Shown: piece by piece, positions 2,113 through 10,345 of the stretch
Numbering within the stretch: the first letter of the stretch is position 1
Layout: every line of letters starts with the position of its first letter
Origin: an uncultured Acidobacteriota bacterium
Lineage (GTDB): Bacteria; Acidobacteriota; Thermoanaerobaculia; Multivoradales; UBA5704
Length of the DNA: 64,000 bases
Reading direction: 5' to 3'
NCBI GenBank assembly: GCA_963700145.1
Contig: OY969474.1
Coordinates: 5,248,001 to 5,312,000, forward strand
Notes under the pieces: model-generated
Told to the model about the DNA's origin: nothing
What the model saw: the letters and a program-made list of their open reading frames with translations, nothing else
Databases searched by the model: none
Position numbers and translations under genes: made by a program

Positions 2113-3027
2113 ATGAAGCATGACAGGCAGCTACGCCTCATTCTGGTGTTTACACTTCTCCTGGGTGTATCGCTGCGCAGCGATGCCGGAGATGAGCTCT
2201 ACCGATATCGTGTCATTGGGAAAGTCAGCACTTCGGATTTAGCCAACATGGCTACCACCACCGCTATTCCTAGCGTGGTCCACAGTATCGAAGTGCTGCT
2301 CGACACCCAGGTAAAGCAACATCCATCGATTGCCAACACCGCCGAGGTCATCGACCTGACGCATTTATTGACTGGCCTTGATGACATGGCCGCTGACATC
2401 AATAGAGATCTGCCGCCGTCTGACGACGACATGAAAGATCTTGAAACTGTTGGTAGGGGTACGTGGGCGGCTGTGGACAGGATCGCGGTGACCGAGAGTC
2501 AGCCGCGCCCGAGCGCGACGCCGCGGCACGTTTCCGAGACCGACTGGGACACAGCCCGCCGCGCTGGAACACGCATTGCGATCGGGACGGTAATCGGCCG
2601 CGGCATGCCGAACCCCCTTGGAGTCTTTGGTGCACTCACTTTCTCGTCGACCCCAACGTCGAAGAAAGCCGATTACCCGGCGGCGCCTTCCACTCCGGGC
2701 GCGTCCTCTGGGGCTCACGAAAGACCTGATCATGAGGTTTTTCGTGGAGATGCTGACAAAGGTCGAATCGAGAGAATGGGAACGCTAGCCTTTATCTACG
2801 TGTCAGAGCCTTCCTCGGACGTGCAAATCGCTGCCCAAATAGCTAAGGCTAAGGCTGTTATCGCCAGGCGGAGTGGGATCCCCCGATCAGGTGCTCTCGT
2901 CGCCAGCATCGCTGACGGTGCTACCGAACCGGAGTTCCTGAGCGGCGCCGCATTCGGTGTGATAGCTGCATTGGTTGCCTTCATGGCAACGAGGGCGTTG
3001 GTGCGCAGAAGAACCTGGCCGGTTTAG
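2113..3027 (+). CDS. Hypothetical protein with signal peptide and C-terminal TM anchor (cassette-like, lower GC)
   Basis: GGAGG RBS upstream; hydrophobic N- and C-termini; GC visibly lower than core genes. Confidence 0.6.
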   Translation: MKHDRQLRLILVFTLLLGVSLRSDAGDELYRYRVIGKVSTSDLANMATTTAIPSVVHSIEVLLDTQVKQHPSIANTAEVIDLTHLLTGLDDMAADINRDLPPSDDDMKDLETVGRGTWAAVDRIAVTESQPRPSATPRHVSETDWDTARRAGTRIAIGTVIGRGMPNPLGVFGALTFSSTPTSKKADYPAAPSTPGASSGAHERPDHEVFRGDADKGRIERMGTLAFIYVSEPSSDVQIAAQIAKAKAVIARRSGIPRSGALVASIADGATEPEFLSGAAFGVIAALVAFMATRALVRRRTWPV

Positions 3028-3059
3028 TGCCACGGCAATTTGGCAAGCCTCGTGCCGGG

Positions 3060-3309
3060 AATGCCTGGCCTGGGTGATGCGGGCGGCGTTGTGCAGAGCC
3101 ATCGCCAAGTCGAGGCTGTAGATGCCGCTGGCCTCCAGGGGCAAGCGCGCGTGCCGGACCTGCTTGGTCAGAGGCCGGACGAGCTGACGGTGCCTGGCGG
3201 CGTCATTCGAGAACTCGAGCCGCTCGCGCTCGCCGCCGGGCGGCTCGACCACGACGGTGAGGGAGCGGGCGCTGACGTCGATGCCGGCGAGCTGGAGGAG
3301 TGGTTTCAC
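3060..3309 (-). pseudogene. IS110 recombinase N-terminal RuvC-like (DEDD) fragment
   Basis: AGIDVSARSL..FSND..LEASGIYS; homology stops after ~80 aa; no C-terminal domain. Confidence 0.85.
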
Positions 3310-3319
3310 CGCGGCCTCC

Positions 3320-3573
3320 TTTTGGCTAACCTGGCTTTCCGGTCCCCCGACCCTGCGCCTTCGCCAACCCAGCTTGTGGATGCAGCTTCCGGGGCCTCAG
3401 AGACTCCACGGCTTGGACGAAGAGGGCGGGGGCCGATCTAACGCACAGGCTCGGTGGCCTCAGGCGTGCCAACGGCCTTCCCCGGAAGGCTGCCGTGATC
3501 CTAAGCTCCGTTCAGAGCGGCTGCGGCGCGCCCAGCGCTGCGGCCAGGTAACTGCAAGGCGGAATATACAAGG
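3320..3573 (-). ncRNA. Putative IS110 bridge RNA
   Basis: Two internal-loop hairpins on the minus strand, each with a guide ending CT and a guide ending AG: GGCCGT-TGGCACGCCT-GAGGC..GCCTG-TGCGTTAG-ATCGGCC and CCGT-GGAGTCTCT-GAGGC..GCTGCA-TCCACAAG-CTGG. Exact RNA ends unknown. Confidence 0.65.
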
Positions 3574-3578
3574 CGACC

Positions 3579-4727
3579 ATGGAAACGCCCTCTCTCCCTG
3601 CGGGTTTTCCGGAAAAGCTTGTCCCGTTGTTCCGCGAGCGCTTCGAGTTCCATCTGACCAACCCACTCGTAAGCCCGCATCAGTACCGACTGTTCAAGGA
3701 TTGCGAGCGGGCTCAGCGCGCTTTGTCGGCCGTCCGTGTCTATCTCGACACAAATCACTGGATACGGCTTCGCCAGGCGCATCGCGGCCTCGAATGCAAC
3801 GAGAACTATGTACGGCTTCTTGAACTCCTTCGGCGGCTGACCAAAGCGCGTACAGTTGTCGTCCCGGTCTCCGATCAGCTCATCACGGAACTCTGCCACC
3901 AAGCTGATCTTGCGACGCGCACAATCACCGCATCGCTCATTGACGAGTTGAGTGATGGCGTCACGATCGTGGGCTTCGATCGCCGCGCCGTACTCGAGGT
4001 GCTTGAATGGGCCCATGCCAGCCTCCACAAAGGAAATCCCCTCCCACTTCTGACGGTTTGGACGACCCTTCCGAACGCCCTTCAATCGCGCGAGTACCAC
4101 CTTGATGGCGCTGACCCGGCACTCTCAGCGGCGTTTACCAAGACCATCGAGGACATCAACACTGCCTTCCGTCTTAGCGACCTCGTCAAGAGTCTCGACA
4201 CTCTCACCTTTCGCGCGACCGACAGTCAAGCATTCGCACTCGCGCTCACCGCTAACAAGGAGAACGAACAGCAGGGCGGGCGACGGTTTGAAGACCTCTT
4301 CCACGAGGAGGCAGATCGCTACCTGACCATGATCGTGCCGAAGATGCCCCCGGAAGTGACTCTAGGGCTCGAGCGGCTTGTTGCCCACTGTAACGCAGCT
4401 GCCGCCGATCTTTCCGACAGCATTAGGATTGTGTTCTGGGCACAGCACCGCGGCGGCTTTCATCCCCGGTCACTCCCTGGCCTTCGCATCATTGCCGGCT
4501 GCGCCAGCAGGATCACGACAGAGCCGAGGCGCAAGTTCAAGCAAGGTGATCAGGGCGACATCTTTCACGCTTACGCGGCTCTTCCTTACTGCAATGTCTT
4601 TCTCACTGATGCCTCAACGCGGCACCTTGTAACCACGCCGCCAACCGATCTGGCCTCGCGATACAATTGCACGGTACTCGACGACCCCACTGAAGCGGCC
4701 GATCACCTTCAGCGGCTGGTCGCCTAG
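3579..4727 (+). CDS. Large PIN-like domain protein (hypothetical nuclease)
   Basis: VYLDTNHWIRL near N-terminus; QGDQGDIFHAYAALPYCNVFLTD near C-terminus. Confidence 0.65.
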   Translation: METPSLPAGFPEKLVPLFRERFEFHLTNPLVSPHQYRLFKDCERAQRALSAVRVYLDTNHWIRLRQAHRGLECNENYVRLLELLRRLTKARTVVVPVSDQLITELCHQADLATRTITASLIDELSDGVTIVGFDRRAVLEVLEWAHASLHKGNPLPLLTVWTTLPNALQSREYHLDGADPALSAAFTKTIEDINTAFRLSDLVKSLDTLTFRATDSQAFALALTANKENEQQGGRRFEDLFHEEADRYLTMIVPKMPPEVTLGLERLVAHCNAAAADLSDSIRIVFWAQHRGGFHPRSLPGLRIIAGCASRITTEPRRKFKQGDQGDIFHAYAALPYCNVFLTDASTRHLVTTPPTDLASRYNCTVLDDPTEAADHLQRLVA

Positions 4728-4744
4728 CTCATACGCCGTTATGC
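4721..4744 (+). other. Truncated attC-like site (right half)
   Basis: GCCTAGCT-CATACGCC-GTTATGC immediately after the stop of 3579..4727 and just before the next ORF. Confidence 0.45.
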
Positions 4745-4747
4745 GAT

Positions 4748-5167
4748 TTGAGGAGTCGGACTATGAGAATCTGCTGCGGCATTGGAGAGGAGCAGGAGAG
4801 GGAAGTGGAGCGCATTGCGCGGCTCATGCTCGATGATTGGGTGCTTTTCTCACTTGACAACACCGACTATGGCTCCCGACAGGAGCACCTGGACCTCAAG
4901 CTCGGCGAATATGGAGCTTCACCCCTCGACGAGGAGGCACTCCCGCAGGTTCGCACTTGTTTGCTCTGGCACCTCGCGCATGTAGACGCGCACCTTGCCG
5001 ATTCGGATAAGGCTAGGCTGAGAGAGCTACGGGACGGGTCCGCCGCAACGACACCGTCTCGCCGGGTCGCGACGACTACTTCAGAAGACTTGAGAGGGAA
5101 GTGGAGAGGAGCTTCTCCGAGAAGCGACTCAGCAGCTTCCGCCGTCGGCGTCTTGCGAGCGAGCTAA
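4748..5167 (+). CDS. Hypothetical protein, possibly frameshifted at its 5' end (ATG at 4741 is in another frame)
   Basis: Open frame between two attC-like sites; no recognisable motif. Confidence 0.4.
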   Translation: MRSRTMRICCGIGEEQEREVERIARLMLDDWVLFSLDNTDYGSRQEHLDLKLGEYGASPLDEEALPQVRTCLLWHLAHVDAHLADSDKARLRELRDGSAATTPSRRVATTTSEDLRGKWRGASPRSDSAASAVGVLRAS

Positions 5168-5200
5168 ATGCTCTTTTACTCGGCTTCCGCCGGTGAGGGC

Positions 5201-5260
5201 GCATAACACACACCTCCACCGGGCGGCTGGCGCCGCCGGTGAGGCGACGATGCGTTATGC
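5201..5260 (+). other. Integron attC recombination site
   Basis: R'' GCATAAC, 5-bp spacer, L'' CCTCCACC (one extra base), hairpin GGCGGC..GCCGCC, L' GGTGAGG, R' GTTATGC; L'-R' spacer is 9 bp, longer than canonical. Confidence 0.75.
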
Positions 5261-6425: not shown

Positions 6426-6723
6426 GGCCCAAGAGCCCCGCGCGAGGGACATCGCCGTCGGCGACGACAGCTTGATGGTGCACCTCGTGGACGGGCGGAC
6501 GCTGATCGTCCCTCTTCTCTGGTTCCCGCGCCTGTGGCACGGCACCGACGCCGAGCGCAAGAACTTCGAGACCTTCGGTGACGGAGCGTTCATCCACTGG
6601 CCGGACTTGGATGAGGACCTGAGCGTCGCCGACCTCGTGGCAGGCGTGCGCAGCGGCGAGACCCCCGAGTCGCTACGGAAGTGGCTCGATCGGCGGGCGG
6701 CTCAGAGCGGGCGAAGCGAGTAG
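6406..6723 (+). CDS. DUF2442 domain protein (putative antitoxin)
   Basis: VHLVDGRTLIVPLLWFPRL..IHWPDLDEDLSV; overlaps DUF4160. Confidence 0.9.
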   Translation: MNSLVVEAQEPRARDIAVGDDSLMVHLVDGRTLIVPLLWFPRLWHGTDAERKNFETFGDGAFIHWPDLDEDLSVADLVAGVRSGETPESLRKWLDRRAAQSGRSE

Positions 6724-10021: not shown

Positions 10022-10074
10022 CTACTTCCCCTCCCCAACTTCATCTTTAGCGCGAAGAACTTGAGGAGGTCTTT
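10022..10074 (-). repeat. Decayed copy 2 of the 3' end of the site-2 protease gene
   Basis: ctacttcccctcc..catcttt.agcgcgaagaacttgaggaggtcttt matches 16084-16138. Confidence 0.9.
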
Positions 10075-10345
10075 CTCGTCCGCGAGGCGATCCTCCTCTC
10101 ACGCGTCGCCGTGCTCTCTTCTGGGAAGCCCTCACCGTCGCCGTCGCCCGCAGCGGCGCGGACCCTCTACGCCGAAGAACTCAACGACGGCCAAGTCCTC
10201 CGCGGCGTGCGCATCACGAACCCCTTCACCGCTATCTCGGGCGCCTAAGAACTCTTCGTTCTCGACCCCCGACAACCTGCGCCCGCGAGATCGCCTCGGT
10301 GGCGCGGTCTGACGGTGCACCTCCGTAGACGGCCGAACGCTAACC
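10075..10345 (+). pseudogene. Decayed duplicate of vapC 3' half plus the DUF2442 fragment
   Basis: Colinear match to 1749-2029 including the junction tctcgggcgcctaagaactctt. Confidence 0.88.

Follow-up and report, generated by a model that had tools for sequence, protein, structure and literature searches.

A relic of an IS110-group insertion sequence in a Thermoanaerobaculia chromosome retains a predicted bridge RNA whose target guides read as an attC R' box

The window, that is, the whole stretch of 64,000 nucleotides that was analysed (C1:5248001-5312000), belongs to a single-contig genome of 5.46 Mb whose assembly is rated 95% complete. On its minus strand, at 3076..3572, lies a relic of an IS110-group insertion sequence (IS), comprising the complete left end and the first ~78 codons of the recombinase gene. 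We delimited the relic by homology to L002, the only other copy in the genome, which is 91% identical to 3572..3076. The L002 element is 1283 bp long and has a left end of 264 nt and a right end of ~17 nt after the stop codon. In a comparison of left ends, the left boundary of the window copy at 3572 (CT-TGTATAT) was found to be common to L002, L016, L034 and L022, and the left end spans 3310-3572, in agreement with the intact left end of about 260 bp reported in the preliminary description. The core dinucleotide CT (AG on the plus strand) occupies the left junction at 3571..3572 on the minus strand, as all left ends in the family start (C/T)T-TGTAT. It adjoins the right-donor bases TGTAT (3566..3570, minus strand), which are complementary to the right donor guide (RDG) considered below. 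A script located the element end CTTGTATATT at 3572-3563 on the minus strand, and likewise placed every other string that had been quoted with coordinates before.

The recombinase gene survives as an N-terminal fragment of a DEDD recombinase with a GTG start at 3309 (3076..3309, minus strand). The fragment matches PF01548 through its residues 8-75 (profile positions 1-69 of 155; 22.2 bits, E 1.3e-4) and NF033542 with an E of 1.1e-6; with an intact relative as query, tblastn covered only aa 5-77 of the window copy. The PF01548 score falls below the 29-bit cut-off because only half of the domain remains, and the sister copy L002 scores 99.2 bits. The C-terminal Tnp domain, PF02371, is absent from the window copy, is split across two frames in L002, and is intact in relatives such as L015. 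Along its whole length, the recombinase of L015 aligns with that of IS621 (PDB 8wt6; E 2.3e-47, 37% identity), and the recombinase of the intact relative scores 185.6 bits against NF033542. These matches agree with the earlier reading of a recombinase cut to about 80 aa. Homology ends at 3076. Past this point the DNA is unrelated; the reading frame stays open in it to 2887, and it includes a 304-aa ORF without a family match. The remainder of the recombinase gene and the right end of this copy are lost. Members of the family occur in metagenome-assembled genomes (MAGs) of Thermoanaerobaculia/Acidobacteriota, Myxococcota ('delta proteobacterium') and Latescibacterota.

On the other side of the left junction, the surviving flank reads AG-GCGACC-ATG (3571-3581), and an ORF starts 7 nt on from AG-GC. 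This 382-aa ORF (ATG at 3579) is directed away from the left end; together with the GCGACC flank it occupies 3573..4727 on the plus strand, and we read it as the next cassette. It has no Pfam or NCBIfam match. A 139-aa ORF follows at 4748..5167 on the same strand, also without a match to a Pfam or NCBIfam family, and neither ORF found a match in the 40 relatives searched with this downstream DNA. Beyond them, at 5200..5260 on the plus strand, we found an attC (GCATAAC...GTTATGC) that is antiparallel to the element and has AT at the core position, where the element requires CT. It scores 59.5 bits against our attC covariance model R1, of which it is itself a seed; the model has 7 seeds, and three of these are IS-adjacent and were oriented using the IS itself, which makes their orientation circular. 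The attC hairpin folds at -31.6 / -39.5 kcal/mol, and the site lies on the matching strand, 1.6 kb from the element. The next best R1 match in the window reaches 13.4 bits (E 0.14), the GTTATGC at 4738-4744 is without support, and R1 detected no partial attC left of 3076. GTTATGC occurs four times in the window, against 1.24 expected. The preliminary description had spoken of surviving GTTATGC attC sites without an AG core; the AT core at 5200-5260 bears this out, but the plural does not stand, as 5200-5260 is the only site that the model supports.

The neighbouring genes are of small toxin-antitoxin types (PIN, DUF6364, Unstab_antitox and DUF4160). Two segments that follow a PIN toxin gene, at 1748-2024 and 10074-10275, are 93-95% identical and 8.3 kb apart, and a fragment resembling the DUF4160 partner gene is present at 1983-2024 and again at 6462-6503. 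Duplicated toxin-antitoxin modules make this region a mosaic. Eleven tandem 21-bp repeats at 875-1210 lie at the 3' end of an open frame and encode a heptad-like RESYP(D/G)x repeat.

Across the genome, attC-like sites number 11 and are scattered singly or in pairs; 4 of the 11 have a CT core at R', and all four are unoccupied. The best genome-wide match to the integron integrase IntI (TIGR02249) reached 137 bits against a 265-bit cut-off, covered the C-terminal part only, and lies 1.2 Mb distant. This match is a 125-aa open frame (G000:C1:4031935-4032198, TIGR02249 positions 226-313), which together with two attC-like sites 29 kb away (C1:4002043-4003022) may be a decayed integron. A relaxed hairpin heuristic for attC had marked 204 places genome-wide, mostly GC-rich hairpins in coding DNA, and was replaced by the covariance model.

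The left end of the relic contains a predicted bridge RNA at 3332..3492 on the minus strand, with one loop for target binding and one for donor binding above a closing stem (141.4 bits against our bridge RNA model, R2). We applied RNAalifold to 20 left-end segments from different subfamilies and obtained 36 pairs, 17 of which show compensatory changes on both sides. The consensus fold consists of the closing stem and two modules; in each module an outer stem leads through an internal loop to a 4-bp hairpin. Single-sequence folding did not separate the real RNAs from shuffled ones in this GC-rich DNA (z -0.09 for the window copy and -1.51 for L002), so that support for the fold comes from covariation and not from energy. 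At gathering thresholds no Rfam family was matched over the whole window, and relaxing E up to 10 over 3000-3700 gave two chance-level matches only. The two bridge-RNA-like loops noticed at the outset are thus real at the level of the family, and the region fits the two-internal-loop layout of a bridge RNA.

The strands of the first loop coincide with the variable segments of the RNA alignment. The left target guide (LTG), GGCACGC-CT, is the variable segment immediately 5' of the inner hairpin (GGCACGCCT, 3462..3470, minus strand), and the right target guide (RTG), GCGTT-AG (3438..3444, minus strand), is supported by right-flank matching in cognate pairs and predicts the right target CT-AACGC. 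Together, the two guides of the window copy predict GGCACGC-CT-AACGC, which on the other strand reads GCGTT-AG-GCGTGCC and contains GTTAGGC, just as the preliminary description had read them. In the second loop, the left donor guide (LDG), GGAGTCT-CT (3399..3407, minus strand), agrees with the L002 right end AGAGTAT-CT at 5/7 positions plus the core. The right donor guide ACAAG (3373..3377, minus strand) is invariant in 20/20 aligned RNAs, and its reverse complement, CT-TGT, forms the first five bases of the left end; the proposed pairing of this guide with the element end CTTGT is thereby upheld.

We extracted the first-loop strands and the flanks from all loci. No target loop was matched in 7 loci (L080, L090, L094, L096, L102, L103 and L022); identical guide/flank sets were collapsed, which left 29 entries having both flanks. 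The right flank matched its own guide at a mean of 4.2 of 5 positions and non-cognate guides at 1.6 of 5, the left flank at 4.7 versus 3.2 of 7, and both together at 8.9 versus 4.8 of 12 (29 cognate and 289 non-cognate pairs, among which kin are not independent). In the per-position tally, L045 and L097 are mis-registered by one base. Among non-attC relatives, the left target guide covaries with the left flank at 5-6 of 6-7 positions. Elements with other guides sit at correspondingly different sites: L038 at CCCCATC-CT-GTCC, L088 and L089 at CCCGCCC-CT-ACG, and many Latescibacterota copies at TCCCCT-CT-TACCT. Because the loop strands covary with the flanks and the donor loop matches the element ends, we conclude that the guides had been assigned correctly in the preliminary description, and that guide positions change with their targets across relatives. 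A genome search for the predicted 14-mer target, allowing up to 3 mismatches, returned hundreds of matches and was uninformative.

The Latescibacterota copies belong to a related IS110-group element present in about 50 copies (L044-L101) in one 5.48-Mb chromosome. They sit in CT-rich repeats (TCCCCT-CT-TACCTCT), and some adjoin TTGCCTC / TTACCTC arrays. In two other genomes, copies lie within longer repeated sequences (L018/L035 in G015, L020/L036 in G020); their left ends carry GTGGGAAACGCG...CGTTTTCCAAGG inverted motifs, which L002-type left ends do not have, and in G015 the starts of the left ends are duplicated in tandem.

Target guides that read AAC occur in two groups, the L002 type in Thermoanaerobaculia and the L040 type in Myxococcota MAGs (CT-AACGGA). 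Eight AAC-guide copies have both ends: L002, L037 (= L015), L016, L040, L041, L042, L043 and L100. We found that seven of the eight are inserted at GTT-AG and six at GTT-AG-GC, and that an attC hairpin or model support is present at four of those seven GTT-AG sites (L037/L015, L016, L042 and L040). L016 and L037 occupy GTT-AG-GC where an imperfect attC-type hairpin ends on its 3' side, and the reconstituted site of L042 is a 60-nt GCCTAAC...GTTAGGC. At L040 the site next to the IS was not among the seeds of R1 and reaches 28.8 bits with this model. Further non-seed R1 matches fall on the same strand, at L016:801-857 (38.6 bits), L037:491-552 (29.1 bits) and 3440-3505 (34.6 bits), and L034:545-619 (25 bits). 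In L034 the truncated relic also borders directly on part of an attC (model positions 19-40). In these loci attC sites follow one another on one strand, two in L016 and three in L037; the window has one. At the insertion sites of L041, L043 and L100, R1 gave no match despite their GTT-AG flanks.

Orientation is equally regular. Wherever the model supports attCs at a locus, the element runs antiparallel to their top strand and has its left end toward the next ORF. Of the 11 attC-type flanks examined, 8 have, in cassette orientation, an ORF of 50 aa or more that begins no farther than 60 nt from the AG core; in GC-rich DNA this carries little weight. Insertion at a fixed position and in a fixed orientation in attC, a trait of the IS1111-attC group, is thus also found in these IS110-group copies. 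The exception among the eight is L002, which lies between two convergent genes at CTGACAT-CT-TACGT, where there is no attC hairpin and the guides match 5 of 12 positions; off-target insertion therefore happens. The grounds named in the preliminary description for refuting its proposal mostly fail: the fold fits, guides covary with targets, and most relatives lie in attC-type sites, with L002 as the one full-length copy that does not. Because guides covary with flanks and AAC-guide relatives sit at GTT-AG or in attC, RNA-programmed attC targeting, as proposed in the preliminary description, is supported for the lineage, whose predicted bridge-RNA target loop encodes GC-CT-AAC (GTTAGGC on the cassette strand). 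In a recombinase tree, from which L100 was dropped for length (121 aa) and in which L042 has a very long branch owing to a mis-called protein, the two attC-type groups form an unresolved fork; the tree is for this reason compatible with either a single or a double origin of attC targeting.

Several shortened derivatives accompany these elements. In L016 (G003:C334, about L016:1432-1961, minus strand), a 530-bp MITE-like non-autonomous copy lies within an attC; an internal deletion (query 485 to 1235) has spared its left end, bridge RNA, ~70 codons and right end. We found no intact copy in the 400-contig assembly that contains it. Relics that consist of a left end only are present in L034 (G003:C301), L021 (G048:C24) and L022 (G004:C31). 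The L034 relic stops just past the RNA and adjoins the middle of an attC, and L022 contains two partial tandem left-end pieces.

The two halves of the target contribute unequally at attC-type sites. In nine attC-type insertions, the two core-proximal bases of the left guide, which correspond to the GC of the R' box, match the flank in 8/9, while its five distal positions match at 22-56%; L037 alone matches the left guide at 6 of 7. What is conserved in an attC falls on the side of the right target, and the left target is formed by the start of the next cassette, which varies. For this reason the elements seem to use a half-site, in which recognition of the conserved attC end could rest with the right target guide, the core and another two bases. 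Since the distal left guide is unmatched at most of the natural sites examined, one RNA could target a whole family of cassette junctions. We tentatively suggest, as a possibility that we would not yet favour, that an IS110-group lineage (or two) in Acidobacteriota and Myxococcota has become an attC specialist by half-site recognition, independently of the IS1111-attC group. Right ends always terminate ...AT-CT, so that insertion leaves GTT-AG-AT on the attC side, which still fits GTTRRRY; if so, the element could travel on as part of the downstream cassette. The natural insertions also supply guide-target pairs whose left guide is for the most part mismatched, and bear on the question of how much pairing a bridge recombinase needs.

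At the locus in the window, AG-GC and the ORF start are what remains of the target, which by itself is weak evidence, and the left target guide matches the flank at 4 of 7 positions. Searches of the relatives with the DNA downstream and upstream of the element found no uninterrupted allele. The preliminary description had placed a GTT/AGGC site directly before a cassette ORF. The AG-GCGACC-ATG flank is indeed present, but the attC itself has to be supplied by inference, because its body lay on the deleted side and so cannot be demonstrated at this very locus. From what remains we consider it likely that this copy was inserted into an attC. Alternatively, the relic may be that of a genuine bridge-RNA IS whose AG-GC flank marks a chance or off-target site here and no attC. 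Off-target insertion has the precedent of L002, just 4 bases of the R' box survive at the 3571 junction, and the window has a single model-supported attC in a genome without an IntI above cut-off. Against this, the GC beside the core is kept in 8/9 attC-type flanks and is replaced by AT in L002; the orientation of the relic to the nearby attC and ORFs is the one seen in relatives; and the region is accessory DNA rich in small toxin-antitoxin genes. Weighing these points, we judge a chance site to be unlikely, though it is the strongest competitor of insertion into an attC.

The preliminary description had gone further and suggested that the retained RNA might still act in trans and rearrange cassettes without IntI. 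Our results speak against this. Set against the RNAs of L002, L016 and L037, that of the window copy differs by one T-to-C change in its left target guide, lacks one C at the junction of the two modules, and carries three substitutions in the inner hairpin of the donor loop (GAGGCC-CCGGAA-GCTG, 3383..3398, minus strand) that break 2/4 pairs. At the two affected column pairs of the alignment, 111-121 and 112-120, the window copy has the sole GG and the sole CA among 20 sequences. With R2, L002 scores 160.1 bits, L016 158.5, the window copy 141.4 and the L034 relic 141.5. The genome contains no intact IS110-family recombinase: PF01548 matches number two, one truncated and the other (L002) frameshifted near L002:2496, within PF02371. 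A scan of 3000-3700 found no promoter-like site. Inspection by eye shows TTGAC(A/T) in right ends, 13 nt ahead of the core, and TATAT(T/C) in left ends, following CT-TG; circle formation would, to judge from these motifs, join them into a junction promoter with 17-nt spacing, of which the window copy no longer has the -35 half, this having been in the lost right end.

An orphan bridge RNA that is retained, transcribed and functional, and with which a recombinase rearranges cassettes in trans and independently of IntI, would be in keeping with the conservation of the two genomic copies, which is highest in the RNA segment (156/162 identical positions, compared with 67/80 in the 5' part of the left end and 208/234 in the coding part), with the recurrence of left-end-only relics in L034, L021 and L022, and with the four empty CT-core sites among the 11 attC-like sites of the genome. 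Yet past selection in active parent elements explains the conservation of the RNA equally well, no intact recombinase is encoded in the genome to use such an RNA, the window RNA alone breaks two conserved pairs and has lost a base, its score is 17-19 bits below that of its nearest kin, as is that of the L034 relic, and neither a promoter-like site nor the -35 box of the inferred junction promoter is left. We therefore regard continued action in trans as very unlikely; this copy is probably inactive now, a decaying relic. The guide-target match at 3076-3572 is best seen as a fossil of past activity, and gives no evidence for integrase-independent cassette rearrangement.

Finally, the structure might be no guide RNA but a plain 5' leader, or an element that controls translation of the recombinase gene. 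This would suit its position directly upstream of the start codon, the missing Rfam family and the unexceptional folding energy, but it is hardly credible, given that the internal-loop strands vary among subfamilies in step with flanking DNA and element ends, and that the architecture and CT core are those reported for IS621 (PMC11208160).

Taken together, we think it probable that an IS621-like IS inserted by means of its bridge RNA into an attC R' box and then decayed to the present relic. In this history, an IS110-group element in a Thermoanaerobaculia chromosome would have used the bridge RNA of its left end to enter a small cluster of cassettes that had no integrase, at the R' box (GTT-AG-GC) of an attC. 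Its right target guide would have paired with the conserved attC side (CT-AACGC), and its left guide would have matched little beyond the GC of the box. The inserted element would have run antiparallel to the cassettes and abutted, with its left end, the start codon of the next one. A later deletion presumably took everything 3' of recombinase codon ~78, together with the right end and the attC body, to leave what would be a decaying remnant: a guide that is still legible, a damaged RNA, and no working recombinase in the genome.

How do these elements compare with known systems? In IS621, one loop of the bridge RNA holds both target guides (LTG, RTG) and the other both donor guides (LDG, RDG), and each pairing includes the core (Durrant et al. 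2024, PMC11208160). Our elements resemble IS621 in full-length recombinase homology, in a long non-coding left end and a short right end, in a predicted RNA of ~160 nt that has these same two loops with their guides, in a CT core and in a donor of the form ...TAT-CT-TGTAT. They differ in that recombinase identity is just 37%, and in two further respects: their natural target is an attC R' box, whereas that of IS621 is a REP-type sequence, and attC-type copies match the left guide mainly at two core-proximal bases, whereas IS621 prefers perfect matches.

The closest functional parallel in target choice is the IS1111-attC group. For ISKpn4, ISPst6 and ISPa25, RNA segments that match the attC target are documented by Siddiquee et al. 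(2024, PMC11187229). As described there, that group also has a DEDD recombinase with an RNA guide, a fixed insertion position at one end of attC, and a guide RNA with two short segments that match the two target strands. The placement of the RNA is different: it lies downstream of the gene in the IS1111-attC group, whereas here the conserved structured RNA is upstream and ~17 nt follow the stop codon. The IS1111-attC elements have long subterminal inverted repeats (7-17 bp), unlike the IS110-group copies studied here; among the 25 longest pairs, we found no inverted repeat that links L002:1501-1530 with 2760-2785. Hosts differ as well, being Acidobacteriota and Myxococcota MAGs here and Proteobacteria with class 1 integrons in the IS1111-attC group. 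IS1111-attC elements, among them ISKpn4, ISPst6, ISPa21 and ISPa25, were reportedly treated by Tetu and Holmes in 2008 and by Post and Hall in 2009.

Group IIC-attC introns are retro-elements with a ribozyme and a reverse transcriptase that home to attC in one orientation. They share attC specificity in one orientation with the elements described here, but their mechanism is unrelated. The attC-like sites of this genome resemble CALIN, or single attC sites, that lack an integrase: the 11 sites are scattered singly or in pairs and accompanied by no IntI above cut-off. The window differs in that it holds just one model-supported site, beside a second, occupied one that we infer. Our literature search found no report of an IS110-group element with a left-end-encoded bridge RNA aimed at attC, though supplementary target lists may include such elements; integron papers that mention IS110 mean IS1111-group elements. 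RNA-guided targeting of attC was known before from the sister group, IS1111, and the present comparison indicates that attC sites are targeted by RNA-guided IS110-group elements too, in soil and sediment phyla far from clinical integrons.
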